Below are positions 5,826-58,348 of a DNA stretch of 64,000 nt, one piece after another. Position 1 is the stretch's first letter; the number at the start of each line of letters is the position of its first letter. The translations under genes were made by a program, and so were the position numbers. The notes beneath the pieces were generated by a model. That model saw nothing but the letters and a program-made list of their open reading frames with translations, was not told where the DNA came from and made no database searches. The DNA comes from Camelus ferus (lineage: Eukaryota): the NCBI RefSeq assembly GCF_009834535.1, contig NC_045696.1:44270001-44334000 (forward strand), in the 5' to 3' direction.

Positions 5826-7112
5826 TGGGAGAGAAAAAAAAATTTTTCCACTGGAAAAATTGACACAATTTTCCCTAACTTGTGATTCATCTAATGCTTC
5901 ACAATTATTTTGCCCACCTGAAAGAATAATTACAATAAGGTTGACTTTTGTCCAAAAACTTTGTGTGAGGAAAAAAAAGGTAACAGAAAGATGGGGGAAG
6001 TGGGCTTTAGCTGTGATGGGTTGGAGGTTTTGTAAGGAAGCATGACAAATGTTTAGTTGTACGTGTATTAAAATGCAAACAACTTTCCTGCTTTTTCCTT
6101 ACTTTTAAAATTTCTACATGCATTTCTCTGTAAACTTAGGTCAACAAACTTGTGAAATCTTAGCCCTTTTCTTCCATTGCTGACTAACTAAGCATTCTGT
6201 TTAATAAAAGGCAAAGTCAGCGAGAAGCGTTTAGATGAGATTGCTGTTAGAAACTTAAGATCCTCATTAGACAGAAAAATGGAAAACATTAGGAGGAAAG
6301 GTGAGGGCTTTATTTTTTTTTTACAATAAGAAAACAATTTTCTGCAGGTAATATTTTTTAAAGGCTTTACAAAACAACCAGAGCTGCAGTCTATAAGCAT
6401 ATTTCCTTAACTTTAACCCAGATGATAGTGGTGACATTCTCCTTGCTCTGCTCAAGTTGCAGGAAACCTCAGAATAGTTCAGCATGAAACACAGGGGACT
6501 GCCAAATTTCAGATCTGCAGCCCCAACAACACGCAAACTTATTTAAATATTTTACACACAAGTAGCATGGGTACCACTGCTTTTCATAGCCATTTTTAAA
6601 GCTTTATACAGGATTGATTATCTTGGATGAAGTTCTGCTCTTACACAGTTGAACATTTCTGCTTCTTAAGAGAAGTCATATTCAGAGAAGTGTTACTTTA
6701 TACTTTGGAATTAAACTTGAGAAGGAATAGGGTTTATGCTTGACTAACACAATTCACCGCATCCTCTGGCATCTGAGCCCACTACAGAGTAAGAAAGAGA
6801 GACAGTAAAGCAACTTTTTGCTCTACTTTTGATTCAGCTCCTAGTTATCCCCACATGAGTAATCCAGAATGCCTCTTTTCTCACCTTTAATCCGTCTCAC
6901 TGCTCATTAGAATGGTAATAATTGAAAGACAAACATCATTTTCTTCAACAAATGTTCTCTGAGTGCTCTGTGAGTAAATGCCATTATCCGAAAGCATTGT
7001 TGTAGGGAATCTATGTTCTGTGAAAATTAAATTGCTTCTGCTGGAAAAAGAGCAGAGTGGTTGGGAATAAAGTGAAGGCAGTAGTAACAGGAGACAATCG
7101 ACCACTATTGAG

Positions 7113-7518
7113 TTTTCTTGTTTTTGTTTTTGCTTTTTTAAATTGAAGTATAGTCAGTTTACAGTGTTGTGTCAATTTCTGGTGTACAGCATAATGTTTC
7201 AGTCATACATATACATATATGTATTTATTTTCATATTCTTTTTAACTATAGGCAATTACAAGATATTGAATATAGTTCCCTGTGCTATACAGTATGAACT
7301 TGTCATTTATTTGTTTTATATATATACTAGTTAGTGTCTGCAAATCCTAAATTCCCAATGTATTCCTCCCTATCCTCTCTGCCTCCTGTAACTGTAAGCT
7401 TGTTTTCTATATCTGTGAGTCTGATTCTGCTTTGAACATAAGTTCATTTATGTCTTTTCTTGATTCCACATATGAGTGATATATGATACTTTTCTTTCTC
7501 TTTCTGGCTTACTACACT
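7113..7518 (-). mobile_element. L1 3' UTR fragment (camelid/artiodactyl type)
   Basis: T-rich tail then aattgaagtatagtcag...tagttccctgtgctatacag...tctttctggcttac; reverse complement of the UTR seen at 33300-33690. Confidence 0.9.
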
Positions 7519-7791
7519 TCTATTGCTAACTGTGCTTTTGATCCTTTTCCTAAAGCCATTCCTTCTTCTCTTCCCCCCACTTCCCTTCCCTTCCTCTACC
7601 TCTTACTTCTTCTCTTCTATCACCGACTACCAGTTCGGAAAAGAATCAATTTCCTATGCATTAGAAAACTCTGGCTCAGTTGAGTACCATGGGATCCTTC
7701 CATTCAGGTGAAATTTTCTCTTACCAGTTACACTTTAAATTTTGGTTAGAGAACTAAAACATTTTTAAAAATCACAAATCTAAAATTTCTG

Positions 7792-8851
7792 TTCATGGGC
7801 ACTTAGGTTGTCTCCATGTCTTGGCAGTTGTAAATAATGTTGCTATGAACATTGGGGTTCATGTATCTTTTCAAATTAGTTTTCGTGGGTTTTTTTTTGG
7901 ATATATACCCAAGAGTGGAATTGCTAGGTCATGTGGTAGTTCTGTTTTTAGTTTTTTGAGAAACCTCCTACTGCTTTTCATAATGGCTGCACCAATTTAC
8001 ATTCCCACCAACAGTGTGCAAGGGTTTTCTTTTCTCCACATTCCTGCCAAAATTTGTTATTTGTGTTCTTTTTGATGACAGCCATTCTGATAGGTGTGAG
8101 GAAATATCTCACTGTGGTTTTGATTTGCATTTCTTTGATGATTAACAAAGTTGAGCATCACAGTGAGCATCTTTATATGTGCCTGTTGGCCATCTGCATT
8201 TTCTCTTTGGAAAAATGTCTATTCAGCTCTTCTGTCCATTGTTTTATTGGGTTGTTTTATTGATGTTGACGTGTGTGAGCTGTTTATATATGTTGGATAG
8301 CAATCCCTTATCAGTCATATAATTTGCAAATATTTTCTCCCATTCAGTAGGTTGTCTTTTCTTTTTGTTGATGGTTTCTTTTAGTGTCCATCAACAGATG
8401 AATGGATAAAGAAGATGTGATACACACACACACACACACAAAATGGAATACTTTACTTCTCAGCCATAAAAAGGAACAAAATTTTGCCATTTGCAGCAAC
8501 ATGGGTGGACTTGGAGGGCAGTATGCTAAGTGAAATAAGTCAGACAGAAAAAGACAGATACTGTATGGCATCACTTATATACAGAATCTAAAAAATACAA
8601 CTGGTGACCATAACAAAAAAGAAGCAGACTCACAGATACAGAGAATAAACTAGTGGTTACCAGTTGGGAGAAGGGGGTTTGGGAGGTACAAACTATTGGG
8701 TGTAAGATAGGCTCAAGGATGTATTATACAATACAAGGAAAATAGCCAATATTTTGAAATAACTATAAGTGGAAAGTAACTTTTCAAAATTGTATATAAA
8801 TAAAATTTAAAAATAGTAAAAAATTCAAACCCAAAAAATAATAAAATAAAA
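7792..8851 (+). mobile_element. 5'-inverted (twin-primed) L1: antisense 7792-8382, sense 8383-8851
   Basis: Antisense ORF2 segment joined to a sense 3' end with A-rich tail; TSD taaaatttctg at 7781-7791 and 8852-8862; internal (CA)10 at 8421-8440. Confidence 0.92.
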
Positions 8852-9720
8852 TAAAATTTCTGAAGTATATGGGTTGCTTAAATTTCATAATTCCATTTTC
8901 CCCCAGTTCTCTTCATTGAACAACACTGATTCTTCCAATGCAGAGCTATTCTCATTAGCTTCCTCCTATGTTCTGTTAGTCAAGGGGGTCACACACATGC
9001 CTGCCCATAATACTGTTTCTAGATGTCTCTCATAATTCTTTATCATACAACTCCCTTTAGAAGTCATACCAATTATTTCTAATACTCTCTTATACTTTTC
9101 TCTACCTACCAATTTTTAAGCTCATTCCTACTTAATTCAACCATTTAACACTTGTTTTCTGCATTTTTCTTTCTCCTATTCTGTAATATCAATTTCAGGA
9201 GCTTCAATATGCCAGCAAATTTTACAATTTCTTAATATGCTTTGTGCCAATTAATTCCAGCTCCACTCTTTCCATTTTGAGTCATAGTATGTCTTTTATC
9301 CTGTGTATTGGTCTAGGGTTTTTCAGTCAACTTAATAAATTCAACTCAAATTTTATTTAAAGAAAATATTGGCTCATGGATTTTTGAAGTTGTTATAGTG
9401 GAATCCTTGATCAGCCAAAGACATCAGGAATCTATTGTTTGCTTTGTTTTTCCCAATTTCTTGATTATGTTTAGCTCTGTGCTATTTTTAGGCACACACT
9501 CTCTGTATGATGACAGAGATGATCTCTTTTGATTTGAGTTTTATGGGTCCTTTTTAGTAGATACCCAAATAGAGATCTATCACATGTCAATTATGTCTTC
9601 CAGTATTCATATCAACCAGTGGGACTATTGTTCTTGTTTGAATCACCAAGAAGAGAAATAATTTATGGTTAGCTGGCCTGAAATAATTTCTCTGAAAAGG
9701 AGGGCCAAGTATGTTGATAA

Positions 9721-10195
9721 GTATATTCGTTTCATAGTTACTACCTCAAATACCACTCTCTTAAGAGTTTAAAATAATATAAAATTATTCTCCTAAGTTC
9801 TGGAGAACAGAAGCCTGAAATCGTACTACTGGACTCAAATCAACATGTTAAAGAGTCCAGCATTTCTCTTAGAGGCTATAAAGGAGAATCTATTTCCGTC
9901 CCTTTTCCAATGCCTGCTTGCTTTCTTTGGCTCCTGGCCCCTTCTTTTACTTCGAAGCCAAAATCATAGCATCCATCATCTCCTTCTCTGGCTGCCTCTA
10001 TTGCCTCCCTCTTATAAAGAGTCTTATGACTTCACTGGGTCAACCCCTTTAGTCCAAGATAATCTCCCCATCTCAAGATCATTAACTTAATCACACGTGC
10101 AATGGATATCTTTTTTATTATGTAATGCAACATATTTTTAGTCTCCAGGGATAAGAACATGGGTATTTTTTAGGGAACGTTTTCCTGCCTACCAC
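9721..10195 (-). mobile_element. MaLR LTR (MLT1D/E-like)
   Basis: gttctggag...gaagcctgaaatc, ggagaatc, gataatctccccatctcaagatc, ttaacttaatcac, ends tgcctaccac. Confidence 0.8.
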
Positions 10196-10250
10196 CGTTG
10201 GCAAGCCTGGAAAGACCTTTCCCCTTATGGTTGTAGAACTATGCTCTTTG

Positions 10251-10283
10251 CACATGATCTTAGCCAAAAGGCCGAGAAGCGAT
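10251..10283 (-). pseudogene. RNU2: Tailless U2 snRNA retropseudogene (U2 nt 1-33)
   Basis: Reverse complement atcgcttctcggccttttggctaagatcatgtg = U2 5' end with 1 mismatch; perfect 16-bp TSD agaactatgctctttg (10235-10250, 10284-10299); no poly(A). Confidence 0.97.
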
Positions 10284-10319
10284 AGAACTATGCTCTTTGA
10301 ATGGTAACCCTACAAATGA

Positions 10320-10654
10320 GGATATGTTTGTGTCTCCCTAAAATGTACTCATTGAAACTCTAACCCCAGATGAAAAGGATTAAAACATGGCCTTTGAGAG
10401 GTAATTAGGGTTAGATGAAGTCATAATGGTGGAGCCCCTACGATGGGATTATTGTCTTCATAAGAAGAGGGACTAGAGCTCTCTGTTCTCTGCCATGTGA
10501 GGACACGGCAAGAAGACAGCCACCTGCTAACCAGGAAGTGAATTATCACCAGGACTTGACTATGCTGATCTTGGACTTTCCATTCTCCAGACCTGTGAGA
10601 AATAATTTCTGCTGTGCAAGCCACATCTATTTATTATAGCAGTCTGAACTGACA
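10320..10654 (+). mobile_element. MaLR LTR (MLT1A-like)
   Basis: ggcctttgagaggtaattagggttagatg, gccatgtgaggacacggcaagaag, gatcttggacttt, ctgtgagaaataa. Confidence 0.85.
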
Positions 10655-10974
10655 GGATGGGACACTTTCCTAAAAGAACACGGATTTCCAGAAGAAACTC
10701 AGATGGCCTCATACAGCTGTCTTCTAATATTACAACTGGTCTTTAATTAACCGATATGATCTGGCATTCTCAGTAGATAATCTGTAAGGTCTCAATATAA
10801 TCCATAAACTCTCACTCTCAATAGATGACATTTCTAATCTCAAAAGTAGATGTTACCAATTAGAATTTTATCAACATCACCATAGTGTGATTCATTCACC
10901 ATTATTTTTCACCACCATCTATATTCATTTCTATTGTATCAACTGATACTAACCAGTGATTAGTAAATGACTAA

Positions 10975-11450
10975 TAACTGATTTCCAGATCTTTATCTCT
11001 TTCCCAGATCCCTCAGCTATGCTTTATTTTCAATTCCTGCTGGGCATTTTTGCCTGAATATCTCACTGGAATCCTTAAACCTATCTTTTCAAAGTCAAGC
11101 TCATTGTCTTTCTTCTGAACTCTTCTCTCATGATTTTTTCCTTCTGTTAATGATACCATTCTCATCAAAGTTGGAACTCTGGAGTCATCTTTGTTTTCTC
11201 CTTTTTTTTTCCCCCATTTCTAACCAGTTGCTAAAATTCAACACAAGTTGTCTCTTAACTGCCTATCGCTGTGTTTTAATTCTCCTTGTCTCTCCCTGGA
11301 ACCACTGCAATAGACTTGTTGCTTTCATGTTATCTCCCTGTAACTTTGCCCAGTAAATATTTCTAAAATGAGATTATGATTATATTTTTTAGCATCTCAA
11401 AATTCTTCAGTGCTCCCCAATGCATTGAGAATTAAGTAATAATCCTTTAC
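10975..11450 (+). mobile_element. Degraded L2 fragment
   Basis: Pyrimidine-rich L2-like motifs (tttatctctttcccagatc, tatctcactggaatccttaaac, ctctggagtcatctttg, ccctggaaccactgcaatag). Confidence 0.55.
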
Positions 11451-11469
11451 AGTTGCATAATAATGTTTT

Positions 11470-11655
11470 ACAATTAACAAAGCACTTTGCATTCATTATC
11501 ATATTTTTTTAGTCACAGAAATAGGCTTGTAAAATATTCTAGTTTTTATTATGAATGAGGAAACTGAGATGCAGAGAGGTAGATATTTTAAATAAGCTTA
11601 TATGGTAAGTGGCAGAGATTTACACCATATCTACTGTACTCAAATTCACTCTTCT
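11470..11655 (-). mobile_element. MIR SINE
   Basis: MIR core atgaggaaactgagatgcagagagg and taagtggcagag. Confidence 0.7.
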
Positions 11656-11946
11656 TTGAGACAGAGGAACTTTTCTCATTCAGTGTCTTCTGCTGGGAGG
11701 GCCTCTCTTGTATATATTATCAGCACCACCTTAATTAAATTTACTACCTAAACCTCTGCGTTTTGAATCATTGTAAAGTTATTCTTTGTGAAATCCACTC
11801 CATCTGTCCCTTTTATTACCCTATTAATTCCTCCAGTTCTTCATGAAATCTACCACTAGTGATTCAATGTGACTGCTCCCTTGTGCTTTTATTCTTGTTT
11901 TGTGTGTACATTATTTTCTTATTTTGCCCATAAGCTTTTAAAGTTT

Positions 11947-11990
11947 TATATATATATTATATATATATAAAATATATATATTATATATAT
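11947..11990. repeat. Interrupted (TA)n simple repeat
   Basis: tatatatatattatatatatataaaatatatatattatatatat. Confidence 0.85.
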
Positions 11991-12155
11991 TCCTAAGTGA
12001 TTAGTACAAATAGGGCCTTTCATATGTGAGCCACTCAAGACACAAGTGTAAATTTAATCTTATTCCTATCTACACCATGTTTAAAAGATCATGAGAATTC
12101 CTATGCTGGATTTGACCCCAGCATTCTGTCTTTAGCAGAAGAAAGAATAGACAGG

Positions 12156-12580
12156 TATTAAAGAAAAAAATGTATTCTGACACTTGTTAAAACAGTAAGA
12201 AAAACTTTATCAGGACTGTCACAATAGGTGTCAAGATTATCACAATAGGGAAGGGAGATCAGGTCAGGCCCCACTCCAAGTACAGCAGACAGCTGGGGAT
12301 TTTCCGTCAGCCAGAAGAGCAAGGGGGTCAGGGGATGGAAAATTCTAAGAGGAGAGAGACATCAAGGGTAGAGAGTTTCTTGCTAAACTGACCTAACAGG
12401 ATTGTTGCTGAAGGCAGGCCAGGGTCATCAGATGTCAGTGGGTGGGCGGGATGCTCGCTAAACTGACTTAGCAGGCTTTCTGTTATAACTACACTAGGCA
12501 GGCCAAAGGCCGGGCCCAAGGATGAAACCCGGTTGAAAAGAGAGTTCAGAGGAGCCTGACTAAAGTTTGGTCAAAGAGAG
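12156..12580 (-). mobile_element. ERV1-class LTR (MER31-like)
   Basis: agaggagcctgactaaagtttggtcaa is the reverse complement of the recalled MER31 5' end; internal repeated gctaaactgac. Confidence 0.8.
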
Positions 12581-15500
12581 GGGAGGTAGGATAGGAGAGA
12601 AATAATGATTTTCTTCCCCTCAACAGCCACATTTCTCCCAGTTAGCCATCATGGATAAATGACTAATGATTTTTTCTAAACTTCTTTCAATCCATCTGTA
12701 GTTTTATGTCACCCTACTCTTAGAAAATGTTATCTGTTTTGTGAGGGACAAGTTAACCTCTCACAAGCAACAAAGGGTGTCCACTTGTAAATTATGCTAG
12801 GCTTGGATAAGTGGCCACACTTTTTTGGATAGTAACCGCACACCTTCTCCCAGAGTTTGCCCTGCACGACTGAAAAATCCTCACGCAACATCTCACCCTA
12901 TTCTCTTTTTCTGCATTGTTTTTGCAACCTTTCTTAGACTTTTTCTGTTTCAATTTTAGCTATCTCACACTGTGACAATTAAAGCTGTAAACATTTTTCC
13001 AGATGGCAAAGCATCAAAATAGTTTCAAAGTTTGAGATAATATCTTATATGTTCTTTTTAATATGACATATGCTAATGTTTGATATTTTAGTTGTATTCT
13101 TGATCAAGTCAGATTTTAAGCCTTTATCTTTAAGACTGAGATTTTAAGTGATAGCTTGAGTTGATAATCACAATACAAATTATTTCCTCATTTTCTCTAC
13201 TTCCTCACACAAAAAGAGATCTGCTACTTATATAAACGCTCAAAATTTTGTGAAGACTATTATCTAGCCTACTGCAGTAAATCGACACTAATTTTATTCA
13301 CCCTTATTTTCAGGTCACATTTCCCAATTACTTTAGTTATCTGAAAGAGTTTTGTCTTCTTGAAATTTTAGGATGGTAGAATGAGAAATTGCCTTTGCAC
13401 TTCTCCATTTAACACATTATTTTAATGTAATTTATATTTGATGAATTCAAATACATTCAGAAGCATAGAGACCAACAGTCCATAATATTTATCCAACATT
13501 ACTATCTTTTAAATCTTAAAATTTTCATATTCATTTTTTAAGGAGTAAAACAGTAAAGAGTCAGTTTATATCTCTTTGTATCCCTCCTAAGACCTATTCT
13601 CCTCAACTCTTATTCCAAAAAAAACCACTTTGTTAAAATTGTTTTTATAGAAAGATACTCTTGGGAAGTTAACAGTACACAGTTTCTCTGGGCCAGGTGA
13701 CCTGCCCTGTAGAGCAGACTTCTATGTTCTTGTCTCTCTCAGACGTCCCCATGGCTTTCCAGAATCACAAGTGAGACTCTGAGATTGTGGGCACATAATA
13801 GTGTTTGATTTTCATGTCACATGATCTCACCTCTTGCTTCAGCTTTCACATTATAATTAACCAGCCATCTCCAGGGTGTGCACATCTTAAGAAAACGAAA
13901 TGTCATTCTAGTTCAGCCTATGTGACAGCAAAAACTTACCTCTAAATTATAATCAAGAGCAGGGCACATGCAGAGAGAATGACAGAAGAACAAAAGCTGT
14001 GAGTATATTAGATTGTCACCAGATTTATCCTTTTCAAGCTAAATTAACTTCAACAACAATCATTTAAAATATCAAAAATATCTTTTTTAGAATGTAATTT
14101 CAGCAATCGGTGTGACCCCCAGGAAGAGTTACGAGTATAGTAATAATGATTCATGGTTTTAAAAAAACATATTTGAAGTTAAAAGGAAAGAAAATAATAT
14201 GTTTTAATTTTTATTGATAGAAAAGATGAAACCCTCAAGTAAAAATAATACTTTTGAATCTTTAGAAATATAAGAATTAAGTTACTCAATGTTTATTATC
14301 TTTTATTTCCTCTACATTCCTTCCAACAAGAGTGAGCAGTGGGAATGAGAAATGCCACGGGAAGGCTAGAGCCAGCCATTCCCCCTGTCTAGGCGCAGAT
14401 ACCCACAGCAGGACAGTAATCTCATCAGCCACTGCAGCTACTCAGGGAACTGTTAAAACACGGGAGGTAATGCAACAGAGGCCATCAAAATGTCAGTGCC
14501 ACGTACTTACTCACTACTACTTAACAATGATTGCTAACAAATAATAATATTATTCATACATAAACGCTCAAAAAAGTATTCCCACCAAAGCCTATCAGGA
14601 GTTACTCCACTATCAACATCAACAAAAACAAATGTAACCTGTGAAAGGCGAGATGCACATGTGACACTGAGGAATCCATAACTAATTCTGGTTTTTATAA
14701 GTTATTTCATTTCACAAACAAATTTTTTTTAATGAAACCTTGTTTTTATAAGAATGTACGTACTGCAAAAGGAAAAATACAATTTTTAAATTGTCAGGAT
14801 GACTCCTATACTACATAAATGAATCTACAAAGAAAAAACCTTCCCCACTCTGCCTAACAGCTTGTTTGTCAATGTCTCTATTGGCTTCACCTGGGTGATA
14901 TGTAAAGTGTCTAAATCACTGAGCTGGGGCCAACGGGTGATACCTAGGTGAGCTTTTGGGTGACAAAGCAGTACCTGATCTGGACATTTTTCAATGTACA
15001 AATCATTGAGCTAGCTGCTAGGGACAGAAGAATGAATGAGAGTTACGCTGCTCAAAAGTTAGAAGAGAAGAAAGCTATTTAAAATGATCAATAACATTCC
15101 GGTGTGGCAAAGGGCTTTACCTGAGGAATGTACTAAGTGCAATGGAAACAAAGAACCCTGGTGCTATCAGAGAAGCCTCAGGTCCATTCCAGTTTTAATT
15201 AATAGATGTGTGGACCTGGGAATACAAAAGAAGGCTTTTCCAATAATAGATTAAAGAAGTTTAATGATCTCTGTATCAAACAGTGTTATTCATTTCAAGA
15301 GAACTATGCTTTTGATTACATAATCTTTCTGTAATCTTCTCAACAGCTCTATTAAAGAGTGACATACGTCAGATCATTTTGTGACAACCACCCACCTGAA
15401 CTCTGAAACATGGATTATTTTATATAATCTAGCTGAGATTCCACAAACTTGTACCTCTACTTTCTTTATTCTTAGTAATAACTTTCATTGTATAAACTAT

Positions 15501-28627: not shown

Positions 28628-29174
28628 TTTTCATGCCAAACTTCTTTTTCGATCTTAAATTTTTTGTATTGTTCAGAGTGCAGTTTTTTTTATATCTGTG
28701 AGTCATATGCCATCACTCATGAAATACACTGAAAGTCTTGTCTATCTTACTAATCCAAACACCTGAATTCTCTAAAGTACCTGAAGAGGCCAGCCTCTAA
28801 CATGACAGCCGCCTGTTTACTTTTAGCTTACTCAGTGCAAGGTCCTGGGTTGGCAGAGCTTCGTTGTTCATTTTGAAAGAGGAAACCAACAAACGTTTTG
28901 CAGGTTAGAGTGATACAGCTACTTAGGGGAAGCACTGAAGTGCTTGGTGATCACAAATGGCAGGATCACGTTACTTGATAACAACCTTCTACCAGCTCTC
29001 TACTGCTATGGACAGTTCCGGTTCCCGAGTCCTTGAAAGATGCTGTCAAATAGGAGGATAACCAGGAAGTATTCAATGATTAAGAATCTGGATGGATACA
29101 AGGTAAGATTAGAAGTGTTAAATGTAAACAGAGTGATCAACTACAATAGGAAATGGGATTCAAAGTGCATGATA

Positions 29175-29219
29175 CACAACATTGTAAAATGACTACAACT
29201 CAATAAAAAAATGTAAAAA
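29175..29219 (+). mobile_element. Ultra-short L1 3'-terminal insertion #1
   Basis: cacaacattgtaaaatgactacaactcaataaaaaaatgtaaaaa matches the L1 end at 55482-55529; TSD aaagtgca(t/c)gata 29162-29174 / 29220-29232. Confidence 0.9.
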
Positions 29220-29249
29220 AAAGTGCACGATAAATATCTGAAGGCTATT

Positions 29250-29302
29250 ATTTGACACGACATTGTAAAATGACCATAAGTCAATAAAAATGTTAAAAAA
29301 AA
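29250..29302 (+). mobile_element. Ultra-short L1 3'-terminal insertion #2
   Basis: atttgacacgacattgtaaaatgaccataagtcaataaaaatgttaaaa matches the same L1 end; TSD atctgaag(g/t)ctatt 29236-29249 / 29303-29316. Confidence 0.9.
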
Positions 29303-29779
29303 ATCTGAAGTCTATTGAACAGCAAATTCAAAAGGTAACTGGGAAAAATACCACAGCTCAGTTTTCAGTTAGAACATAGCAGGATTAAGCACTAGATCAA
29401 AGAGAATATATTAGGCCAGAGAAACAGATACAACAAACAACGTTCAAATCTCAGAAGCTTAATGCTTGCATCCTAGCCCCCTGTGGGCTGAAGAAAGAAA
29501 TGAGAAGGGTGCTTCTCCATGGAGTCATGTAGTTCCTCCACCATCTTCCTGAGAAGGAGTCAGGAGGCTAGGACCTGTGGAACAGTATTGGACTCAAACC
29601 TGTGTCCATATGGCATGTGGGCAAAGAGTGGTTTCTGTATTTTTAACAACTATAAAAAATAATATGACATGGAAATAATTGACTGTCCAGCCTCTTCAAA
29701 AAAACAAAATGCCGACCACAGATATAGAGACTTGGTGCTCTCGACTAGATCTCTACCTCCAGCTGGCAGACAAGGGAAA

Positions 29780-29930
29780 TGAAGGGCCGTGGAGGATTGT
29801 GCCAGAGGTTCTGGGGACCAGGCTTGGAAATGACACACATGACTTCTGCTCACATACTAAAGGCAAGAACTATTTAATGGAGCCCCACCTCTACACAAAG
29901 CACCATTGCAAGTACAGTCTGTCTGTAGGC
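29780..29930 (-). mobile_element. Old MaLR LTR fragment
   Basis: ccaggcttggaaatgacacacatgacttctgctcacat...ggcaagaact. Confidence 0.55.
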
Positions 29931-53868: not shown

Positions 53869-55529
53869 CAAGGCAATCTACAGATTTAATGCAATCCCTA
53901 TCCAATTACCCAGGACATATTTCACAGAACTAGAAAAAATCAATAAAATTCATATGGAACCATCAAAGACCTAGAATTGCCAAAGCATTACTGAAGAGAA
54001 AGAAAGAGGCTGGAGGAATAACTCTCCCAGACTTCAGACAATACTATAGAGCTACAGTCATCAAGACAGCATGGTATTGGTACCAAAACAGACATATAGA
54101 CCAATGGAACAGAATAGTGAGCCCAGAAATGAACCCGCAAACTTTTGGTCAACTCATCTTTGACAAAGGAGGCAAGGATATACATTGGAATAAAGACAGT
54201 CTCTTCAGCAAATGGTATTGGGAAAACTGGACAGCAGCATGTAAAACAATGAAGCTAGAACACTCCCTTACACCATATACAAAAATCAACTCAAAATGGA
54301 TTAAAGACTTAAACATAAGGCAAGATACAATAAACCTCCTAGAGGAAAACATAGGCAAAACATTATCTGACATACATTTCAAAAATTTTCTCCTAGAAGA
54401 AATAAAAGCAAGAATAAACAAATGGGACCTAATGAAACTTACAAGCTTCTGCACAGCAAAGGAAACCAGAAATAAAACAAGAAGAAAACCTACGGAATGG
54501 GAGAAAATTTTTGCAAGTGAAACTGACAAAGGCTTGATCTCCAGAATACATAAGCAGCTCATACGACTCAATAAGAAAAAAATAAACAACCCAATCCAAA
54601 AATGGGCAGAAGACCTAAACAAGCAATTCTCCAAGGAAGACATACAAATGATCAAAAAGCACATGAAAAAATGCTCAATATCACTAATTATCAGAGAAAT
54701 GCAAATCAAAACTACAATGAGGTATCACCTCACACCAGTCAGAATGGCCGTCATTCAAAAATCCACAAATGACAAATGCTGGAGAGGCTGTGGAGAAAGG
54801 GGAACCCTCCTACACTGCTGGTGGGAATGCAGTCTGGTGCAGCCACTATGGAAAACAGTGTGGAGATTCCTCAAAAGACTAGGAATAGACTTACCATATG
54901 ACCCAGGAATCCCACTCCTGGGCTTGTATCCAGAAGGAAATCTACTTCAGGATGACACCTGCACCCCAATGTTCATAGCAGCACTATTTACAATAGCCAA
55001 AACATGGAAACAGCCTAAATGTCCATCAACAGGTGACTGGATAAAGAAGAGGTGGTATATTTATACAATGGAATACTACTCAGCTATAAAAACCGACAAC
55101 ATAATGCCATTTGCAGCAACATGGATGCTCCTGGAGAATGTCATTCTAAGTGAAGTAAGCCAGAAAGAGAAAGAAAAATACCATATGAGATCGCTCATAT
55201 GTGGAATCTAAAAAACAAAAACAAAAACAAACAAACAAAAACAAAGCGTAAATACAGGACAGAAATAGACTCACAGACAGAGAATACAGACTTGTGGTTA
55301 CCAGAGGGGTGGAGGGTGGGAAGGGATAGACTGGGATTTCAAAATTGTAGAATAGACTACACTGTATAACACAGGGAAATATACACAAAATGTTATGATA
55401 ACTCACAGAGAAAAAAATGTGACAATGAGTGTGTATAAGTCCATGAATAAGTTAAAAATTGTGCTGAACACTGGAATTTGACACAACATTGTAAAATGAT
55501 TATAAATCAATAAAAAATGTTAAAAAAAA
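53869..55529 (+). mobile_element. Young 5'-truncated L1 (camelid-type): ORF2 C-terminal part open 53943-55211, full 3' UTR
   Basis: 364-aa ORF extends upstream without stops to 53943; CCHC motif [18 protein letters not shown]; ends [15 protein letters not shown] and A tail. Confidence 0.97.
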
Positions 55530-57707
55530 GAAATGCTTTAATTAGCAAAGCTGAAAAAAAAAAGAAAATTGCAAGAGAATATATAAAGAAAAAGAAAATT
55601 GAAAGACACTGGACTTAGAGAGTTATTGTCACTACATCTAGTGAGAGAGTACAGCTGAGTTGGTAATTAAACAGCCACACTCCCGCTGACAGATCTGCAG
55701 CATCCCAAGAATATGACTAGATCTAGACTCACACGGAAAACCACCACTAAATAGGCTTACTTCAGACAGACTCAGTCTCTCCACCTAGAAAGTGCAAATT
55801 ATAAAATCTGGACTAAGAGGAGTCATGAAGCACCCAGTCTTAATCACACAGTATGCCCAGGATAGAAGCTAAAAGGATATCGTATATTTTAATGCATTCA
55901 CTCGTCAGATCACAAGCTGAGTCTTTACAGAAATTGATTGACACTATTAGGATATATGGCAGTATACTATAATGGGATGTACAGCATCTCATAATAATAA
56001 TGTTTGATGATGTCTTTTAATAATGTTCCAGTGGTATTTCTGGCTCAAGGAATGTCAATCAAGATCAATTCCCTCTGCCATTTCTAGAAAACAACTAAAA
56101 TTCAGAATGACCAATAATACCAAATAGTGCAAGAATAGTAATAGTACATATTGCTACTACTAGTAAAAGATTCGCTTCTTATAAGCTCACTGAATTCCAC
56201 ACAGTTCCCAAAAACAGAAATCATATTACTGCTATTAAAACCTAGATACACATAGTGATTATTTGTCCACAGAGCCCAATTTCCATTTATGGATGTTATT
56301 CTGCTCTGCATTATACTTTCATGGAAGTAGGGAAAAGTAAAATTCCCAATTTGGATGGAAACTTATGCTAAGGGACAGTATTTTACACTTAATCCAAGAT
56401 CAAACGAGATCAAAGAAAACTATTATTTGTGAAACGACAGCCCTAAAACAAATTTAAGTCCCTGGCCAATACCTTCCACTCCAAGTACATCCCCACCAAC
56501 TCCTTTTTGACTGAAAATTCCAGAAATTTTCCTACATAGTTTGCTGCCATTTTTTGTTCCTCCAAGACAACAGGTAGCTACAAGTTTATGGTCATAGTGG
56601 GAATTCACACTAGCCAAATTAATGCCAGAAGACGCAATGATATGTATCACTGCCTTAAGCCAATTGGTTGCTAACATAGTCTCTGAGCAATAATTTTGTT
56701 CCATGATTTTGAAGCACTATAGCAAATTCTCCTTGGGCCTCTGACAATGTGAAAAAGGACCACAAAAGACAAAATCAGGGCTATATTTTGTCCTATCACT
56801 TAAAATTCCTCCATATTGATCTCACTGTTTACCTGTCTTTCTAGTTAGGATCTTGTTGATTTTTTGCCTAAACCGTCTCTGAACAAATTTCTTCCTCAAA
56901 TGATGCATTCTCTACTAGCCTGAGTTTTGTCTACAGCCTTCCTCTGACCTATAATGCTATAAATCAGGACTCATATTCTATGTCTTGATCCCAAGGCCAC
57001 TTTGACAACAAGCTGTTGAAACTCCCCAGGACTGACCAAACCTTCTGCCTCTCCTACCTGGACTTTCATTGGCCTTTTGGTCTCAAACTTTAGCAATTTA
57101 CATTTTGCCAGTGATGCTTTGACATTAGCAAGCAGTCATCATCTTGACCCTTTCCTTCTCACCACTATCTCCTATAATAACATGTTAATATCATTTTCCT
57201 TATAGGGCAGCTTGAATTTGTTCAGGTGTTCCAATAAAGTACTTTCCTCAAATCATAATCTTGTCTTTGGCCTAATGAAGATAAACTCTCCATAGAGTGT
57301 ATTTTCTACAATGGGAATTCAGTGACATATTTAATACTCAGATATCTTACTTAGTTGGCATATTGACATTAATTAAAAAATCAAATTTTGGTGACTTTGA
57401 CACCACCACTCACTACTGCCTTTTGCTAAGCCCATTCACAAAGGGCATCATCCTTTGAATTTGCAATCTCTAGGTTAATGATGAGGATAAGAAAGACCAA
57501 CATGCTCTGCTTCATCTTCCCCACCCCCTTAAATTCAAGTATCTGCCAACTGTGTCTGAGGAAATCCAGAACAAACAAAGAAGTAAGGGGAAGACATTAG
57601 AGAGAGCAAATAAATGAGGATAAGATGGTGAAGAAAAGAGCTCTCAATTCATTTCAAGACTTCTATCATTATGGTAACCCCAGTTAACTCTGAAAAAGAG
57701 TATCTGT

Positions 57708-57708
<1 letters not shown>

Positions 57709-57752
<44 letters not shown>
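57709..57752. repeat. (TATC)11 microsatellite
   Basis: Perfect tetranucleotide run at the tail position of an antisense L1. Confidence 0.95.
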
Positions 57753-57754
57753 AT

Positions 57755-57851
57755 CTTACTGAAGTATAATCAGTTACAATGCATCAGTTTCAGTGTGTCA
57801 TTTCTGGTGTACAGCATAATGTCTCATACATATACATATATGTATTCATTT
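57755..57851 (-). mobile_element. Short L1 3'-terminal fragment
   Basis: tgaagtataatcagttacaat...tttctggtgtacagcataatgtc, matching 7113-7518 and 38344-38644. Confidence 0.85.
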
Positions 57852-58348
57852 AATTAAACAGAATTAAAATGTTATTAAGACTTATTTCCTCAGAAATTGG
57901 AAGACTGCCTAAACCTGCATCTTTCACTAATTCAGTTATTATTTTTTAGCATTTTAAAAAGCAATTAAGCCATATTTCCTCAAAAGAAACCTTACAGGTA
58001 ACCACAACAAGATTTTCTGGTTGAGTAAAAGTGGGAGGCACTGTTTCATTAGCTTTTTTCCTGACAACTCTGCCGTATCTCCTGAGAAAATCTTGATTGT
58101 CTCTACTTTCTTTGTCTTTATCTTTAGGTGTTTGCCAGTGTCTAATATGGGCCTACTGCTCTGACTTACATTACAGTTGCCTTAGTTGGCTTCTTAATCT
58201 GTTCTGTAGCCTAATTCTCACCTGAACTTTCTTTGGATCACCAAAGTACTAGTTAATAAACATAGTCTCTAACTGTCACTCATTTTACCAAGGTTTAAAT
58301 TTAGAGTCCATTTCCTCATCACATGACCCTCAAATTTAGCTGAATTCA

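Follow-up and report, generated by a model that had tools for sequence, protein, structure and literature searches.

The window analysed here is a stretch of 64,000 nt with 34.8% GC and 0 N, and at 29162-29316 it contains two very short L1 3' ends in the same orientation, each enclosed by its own target-site duplication (TSD). Direct reading gives the order a / insert 1 / a / b / insert 2 / b, in which a and b are target segments that are each present twice. The locus is a single non-coding site with no sign of function, and the double-tail feature is real and well formed. Its parts, together with the element used to recognise the tails, are as follows.

29162..29173, plus strand: target segment a, left copy (TSD1), by direct reading; 13 nt when 29174 is included
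29174..29219, plus strand: insert 1, 46 nt, the final ~41 nt of a young L1 3' UTR and 5 A
29220..29231, plus strand: target segment a, second copy, 11/12 identical to the left copy with a CpG difference at 29228
29232..29249, plus strand: target segment b, first copy (TSD2 in its 18-nt reading; the 14-nt reading begins at 29236)
29250..29298, plus strand: insert 2, the final ~45 nt of the same L1 3' UTR as insert 1 and 4 A
29299..29316, plus strand: target segment b, right copy, 16/18 identical to 29232-29249
53869..55529, plus strand: reference young L1, 5'-truncated, whose 3' end identifies both tails

Both inserts lie on the same strand and both represent the extreme 3' end of an L1. When compared by BLAST with the window's own young L1 end, 29174-29223 aligned to 55481-55530 at 88% (E 4e-12) and 29250-29302 aligned to 55476-55529 at 90.7% (E 2.7e-14), which upholds the first-pass annotation in its description of two L1 3' ends of ~50 nt at these places, each with its own TSD. 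The reference copy contains an open ORF2 C-terminal frame at 53934-55211 (425 aa) and bears the sister subfamily letters; no convincing TSD was found for 53869-55529. Insert 2 measures 49-53 nt, its end moving to 29302 if TSD2 is taken as 14 nt, and at its 5' end it contains five L1-matching bases that insert 1 lacks. The 5' junction of insert 1 displays 1-nt microhomology and that of insert 2 none. The A-runs comprise 8 nt in insert 1 and 9 nt in insert 2, of which 5 and 4 nt fall outside the TSDs when these are read as 12 and 18 bp; both runs are short and probably eroded. Each piece carries the tested marks of a 5'-truncated L1 TPRT insertion, namely an L1 3' end, an A tail and a TSD of ~7-20 bp. 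The inserts were also recovered as one direct repeat of 49 nt (29174-29222 and 29255-29303, 84% alike), and Tandem Repeats Finder did not report the pair.

TSD1, at 29162-29174 and 29220-29232, is identical at 12 of 13 positions, and its single mismatch falls at a CpG. The last base could equally belong to the L1 as 1-nt microhomology, giving a 12-bp TSD. TSD2 is identical at 13 of 14 positions between 29236-29249 and 29303-29316, and it can be extended leftwards to 29232-29249 and 29299-29316, where 16 of 18 positions agree; the CpG mismatch and the extension to 29232 had both been proposed beforehand and were found again. Among 19,872 random window flank pairs, junction-anchored repeats with at most one mismatch reached at least 13 nt in 5 cases and at least 14 nt in 1.

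With TSD1 read as 12 bp and TSD2 as 18 bp, the former ends at 29231 and the latter starts at 29232, so that the gap is zero and the previously claimed abutment of the targets holds. Under the 14-nt reading of TSD2 the gap is 3-4 nt; the 18-nt reading costs a second mismatch. TSD1 and TSD2 overlap by at most 1 nt, the second beginning where the first ends or beyond it. The bottom-strand junction at 29162..29173 reads CTTT/GA, with two mismatches to the L1 endonuclease consensus, and both junctions stand two mismatches from TT/AAAA (motif 5'-TTTT/AA), a distance found at up to 9.5% of window positions. At the second site the motif has one mismatch if the right copy of b retains the old base, and the 14-nt reading gives four. 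Positions beside AA are 3.2 times likelier in the window to look like an endonuclease site, and the second nick is reported to favour TNTN/AA (PMC2836564); some abutment is therefore expected even without coupling.

Nine L1 3' ends were recognised in the window. Their lengths were taken from BLAST and direct reading, leaving out over-extended local-alignment values (162 nt for insert 1 and 200 nt for the copy at 57.8 kb). The two inserts alone measure ~50 nt, one copy measures ~100 nt, and six range from roughly 260 to 1,660 nt. Folding of the L1 3' end in search of a stall structure near -50 nt gave a stability no greater than that of shuffled sequences (z -0.85).

The wider family of tails was assessed with reads from two Hi-C runs of one sample, possibly the assembly's own, aligned to 28700-29800 at 85% likeness. 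Nearly all of the 11,581 and 9,452 aligned reads fall on the tails, and the mean flank depth in the 25 bins outside them is 1.7 and 0.7. Read depth places the L1 tail copy number at ~6,800-13,500; the nominal-depth estimate uses a genome of 2.1 Gb, and a table in PMC8605555 implies ~2.0 Gb. Reads are present on both flanks of the locus (each run covers 25 of 30 bins), at ~1x per run, a depth that cannot prove spanning of the 30-bp spacer. No joint skipping an insert is listed, and ~1x depth in one sample is too low to exclude an empty allele.

The loose read ends 5' of 29174 agree at 0.86-0.87, and those 5' of 29250 at 0.92, with one upstream L1 sequence, where agreement is taken as the per-letter match and 0.30 is assumed for unrelated DNA. 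Since the loose ends of both inserts continue into the L1 3' UTR, most tail copies are longer L1s. Reads from copies that stop within those 30 nt amount to at most 19-20% at the insert 1 end and at most 11% at the insert 2 end; the same share is ~2-14% if true copies match at 0.93-0.95. It is inflated by Hi-C chimeras and older subfamilies, so that the number of ultra-short copies is probably a few hundred to 2,000. Such copies form a minority of the tail family, at most 11-20% and probably nearer 5-10%, which agrees with the earlier remark that truncation of both inserts to ~50 nt is unusual.

These data also bear on the idea that the 50-nt unit is its own mobile mini non-autonomous family, or else a plain tandem duplication or an assembly artefact, explanations that we regard as highly improbable. 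The existence of ~6,800-13,500 tail copies speaks for a family of this kind, but the 5' loose ends that run into the L1 3' UTR at 0.86-0.92 largely refute it, no place is listed where many molecules begin, and the two 5' ends differ by 5 nt. A SINE-like short element with a fixed 5' end was rejected on the same upstream agreement, no common start being listed among the reads. Plain tandem duplication, which the first-pass annotation had also dismissed, was rejected because the right-hand repeats differ and the 5' ends lie 5 nt apart, insert 2 having the additional L1-matching bases. An assembly artefact was likewise rejected: duplication during assembly is unlikely because the copies, 84% alike, differ at several places.

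Some reads join one tail to another. In three of the six rows of the joint table, a read finishes one tail and begins another, with 5, 40 and 25 letters between them. Each row holds two reads, which possibly derive from one molecule and are not tied to loci, and one of them restarts with the five 5' bases of insert 2. Tail-to-tail forms may recur elsewhere in the genome; the reads would be explained just as well by insertion into an A-tail, and they may also be chimeras from the library.

The letters that distinguish insert 1 from insert 2 occur in few reads, 6.6% for 29196, 3.1% for 29259, 2.6% for 29275 and 4.5% for 29280. Insert 1 carries one of them (29196) and insert 2 three (29259, 29275 and 29280), and none is common to both. 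At 29193/29274 both inserts bear the majority subfamily letter, C, which is found in 70% of 11,554 reads, and the majority letter is also present at 29189 or its counterpart. The second subfamily-diagnostic site of insert 2, 29280, is mutated and uninformative, so that 29193/29274 is the one subfamily site readable in both. Given their low share of 3-7% of reads, the separating letters look like private changes acquired later by copies of a single source sequence, and with the majority letter common to both inserts the differences do not indicate different sources. The word 'independent', which the first-pass annotation had applied to the two insertions, finds no support here. Changes number 2 of 71 sites in the insert 1 half and 5 of 89 in the insert 2 half (Fisher p=0.46, low power), and mutation load cannot order the two inserts in time.

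This arrangement would follow if a local hotspot had received two TPRT insertions one after the other, each from a severely truncated L1 RNA; the A-run at 29232-29236 would then have provided the context for second-strand cutting in one event and the endonuclease site in the other. Such an origin is quite possible, if a little on the doubtful side. Each insert taken alone has all the hallmarks of a simple insertion with a TSD of canonical length, and both junctions lie within two mismatches of TT/AAAA, like 9.5% of window positions. In human, same-direction Alu pairs are dense at spacers of at most 24 bp (PMC3215922), repeated use is documented for 6 of 66 disease-causing sites (PMC3219598), and TSD positions 11-12 show an excess of A (PMC12633430); the TNTN/AA preference of the second nick points the same way. 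Insert 2 and its TSD carry ~2x the mutations of insert 1, a difference that is not significant. Against two separate hits stand the four coincidences that they require, namely proximity, exact abutment, a second ultra-short copy and the same subfamily. A uniform model with 300-2,000 ultra-short copies in 2.1 Gb predicts 6e-5 to 3e-3 same-strand pairs per genome if abutment is allowed 3 bp, and 6e-4 to 3e-2 if the distance may reach 30 bp, so that enrichment of a hundredfold or more would be needed. Sequence preference raises the chance of an abutting pair only a little. Since the random expectation is tiny and this preference helps little, a strong hotspot or coupling has to be invoked for the pair. 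Furthermore, the tandem routes described in the available part of PMC3215922 let the second element land within the A-tail or TSD of its predecessor, a mark of tandem insertions that is absent here, where TSD2 lies outside TSD1.

We lean towards coupling, in which one L1 target-primed event, stalled and restarted, made both tails; we hold this with about as much belief as doubt, and judge it likelier than two hits in view of the exact contact between the two targets. The locus can be written as an ordinary insertion of insert 2, with a TSD of 18 bp, to which 58 nt (29174-29231, comprising insert 1 and a copy of a) have been added exactly at the first-strand nick, the point at which fill-in synthesis across the TSD has to be ligated. 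The stretch 29174-29298 can be placed at one nick, between the left a and the right b, which are adjacent in the middle copy; this placement needs the 18-nt TSD2. The exact abutment has in this way a simple single-nick explanation, which the first-pass annotation did not offer.

For such a stuttered insertion we infer six steps, in the following order. The first-strand nick would lie between 29231 and 29232. The top strand would be cut 18 nt downstream, and the cDNA would jump to the exposed target strand and copy segment b, which is how a TSD of 18 bp normally arises. Synthesis, not being ligated at the nick, would proceed 12 nt further to a TTT, displacing the old strand. The T-rich end would re-prime on the L1 poly(A) tail, either the RNA or a fresh DNA copy, and copy ~46 nt, giving insert 1. 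The displaced 12-nt flap would re-anneal and be joined to the new cDNA end, and the looped strand would finally be fixed by replication or repair. Because the flap re-anneals and joins the cDNA, TSD1 would have to end exactly at the first nick, and the zero gap would be forced rather than accidental.

Several results are counted for this single event: the zero gap, the majority letters common to both inserts where readable, the minority status of ultra-short tails, the lack of a difference in mutation load (low power), the greater length of seven of the nine L1 3' ends in the window, the uniform-insertion expectation of 6e-5 to 3e-3, and the tail-to-tail reads in three of six joint-table rows. 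Human ORF2p displays a stagger of 12-18 bp, within which 18 bp falls, as well as template jumping, DNA-directed synthesis and the use of 5-nt primers (PMC10830420). Among de novo L1 insertions in cultured cells, nine consisted of two RNA-derived pieces in either orientation and three included nearby templated genomic DNA; for one of its systems that study covers 99 L1 and 235 pseudogene insertions (PMC11702581). Against the single event count the 0 occurrences of strand displacement by ORF2p in the accessible text of PMC10830420, the absence of the exact layout among the examples in the available part of PMC11702581, the existence of real hotspots, the abutment to be expected beside AA, the second mismatch that the 18-nt TSD2 entails, the mutated site 29280 and the other possible origins of the tail-to-tail reads.

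A single insertion followed by a later copying error would also yield two tails. Here insert 2 would be ordinary, and a subsequent replication or repair template switch would have copied its last ~46 nt and a 12-bp flank in front of it. Insert 1 is indeed wholly contained in insert 2, and the two switches would use 1-nt and A-run microhomology. Still, the inserts have no rare letters in common, so the copying would have to predate all mutation, and this scheme gives no reason for the copied flank to stop precisely where TSD2 begins; we consider it improbable.

Within the single stuttered event, ORF2p itself may have copied the target past the first nick by strand displacement and re-primed on its own poly(A), which would make abutting double TSDs a fossil signature of this activity. 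This attribution is tentative and, in our estimation, rather unlikely. If it were true, some apparent 'tandem independent insertions' in mammals would be single stuttered events, and counts of these would provide a test of what forms the 5' junction in truncated L1s, a step whose assignment to ORF2p or host repair is called unsettled in the Discussion of PMC10830420. More generally, if the pair is the product of a single event, it provides a signature that can be counted in assembled mammalian genomes (TSD offset 0, short-short, same subfamily), and it cautions against reading two insertions from the presence of two TSDs. If two events produced the pair, it is a striking yet ordinary hotspot.

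In relation to known systems, the layout is a variant of the complex L1 insertions; it works like a template-switch insertion and lies outside the described chimera class, because its outer flanks are a on the left and b on the right, with no single enclosing TSD pair. Tandem same-direction retroelement pairs are reportedly also treated by El-Sawy and Deininger (2005). These pairs, the 'TSD APE' cases and CLIQUEs (PMC3215922) and the reused endonuclease sites of NF1 (PMC3219598) likewise involve two same-orientation insertions by the L1 machinery, tens of bases apart. In the portions of these sources available, however, the second element occupies the first's TSD or A-rich part, or different individuals carry insertions at one and the same site, whereas here each piece is ~50 nt long and TSD2 begins immediately beyond TSD1.

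The complex de novo L1 insertions (PMC11702581) resemble the locus in their two same-orientation reverse-transcribed pieces, in template switching and in the local DNA copied into the junction. None in the available part of that source has two copies of one tail flanking a 30-bp copy that is centred on the nick, with two apparent TSDs that abut, and those insertions were induced in cultured human cells, whereas the present pair is an old germline scar. Ordinary severely 5'-truncated L1s (PMC10830420, PMC2912911), along with a poly(T)-only insertion (PMC3219598), share the L1 3' end, the A tail, a TSD of 12-18 bp and 0-1 nt of 5' microhomology; the present tails differ in being doubled, abutting and below the usual 'few hundred base pairs' (PMC10830420). 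LINE-1 chimeric insertions (PMC13174262) also join two cDNAs in the same orientation in one event. As described in the accessible part of that source, they have one TSD pair round the whole chimera and a non-L1 RNA on the 5' side, whereas the present pair consists of two copies of one L1 tail with target DNA between them; sequential and chimeric origins were separated there by multi-species alignment. The literature search found no account of the double-tail layout; subscription papers and most supplements may hold one.

Other L1 pieces were observed in the window. At 7789-8675, L1 3' pieces of opposite orientation meet at ~8385-8390 (BLAST matches to 54450-55032 on the minus strand and 55020-55316 on the plus strand), and the whole looks like a 5'-inverted (twin-primed) L1. 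On the minus strand, 57750-57855 is an L1 3' end of ~100 nt from an older subfamily. It contains a short internal duplication, and a GATA microsatellite takes the position of the A tail; no TSD was seen by eye. At 1328-2721 lies an L1 ORF2 fragment, 84% alike to 53869-55236, which ends a short way into the 3' UTR, where unrelated sequence follows.

Tails of the host L1 were also sought outside the window. Strict patterns gave 0 matches in viral and metagenome contigs, and a looser tail pattern gave 16 + 3 loci. Of these 19, five match window L1 3' ends by BLAST over at least 40 nt and one more resembles them; the rest look like chance. No tandem and no member of the double-tail subfamily is among the 19, and these loci were therefore set aside. 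Six loci in public metagenome contigs (L001, L002, L004, L010, L012 and L015) are mammalian-type L1 3' ends, presumably from host DNA, with L004 assigned by its likeness to L001 only.
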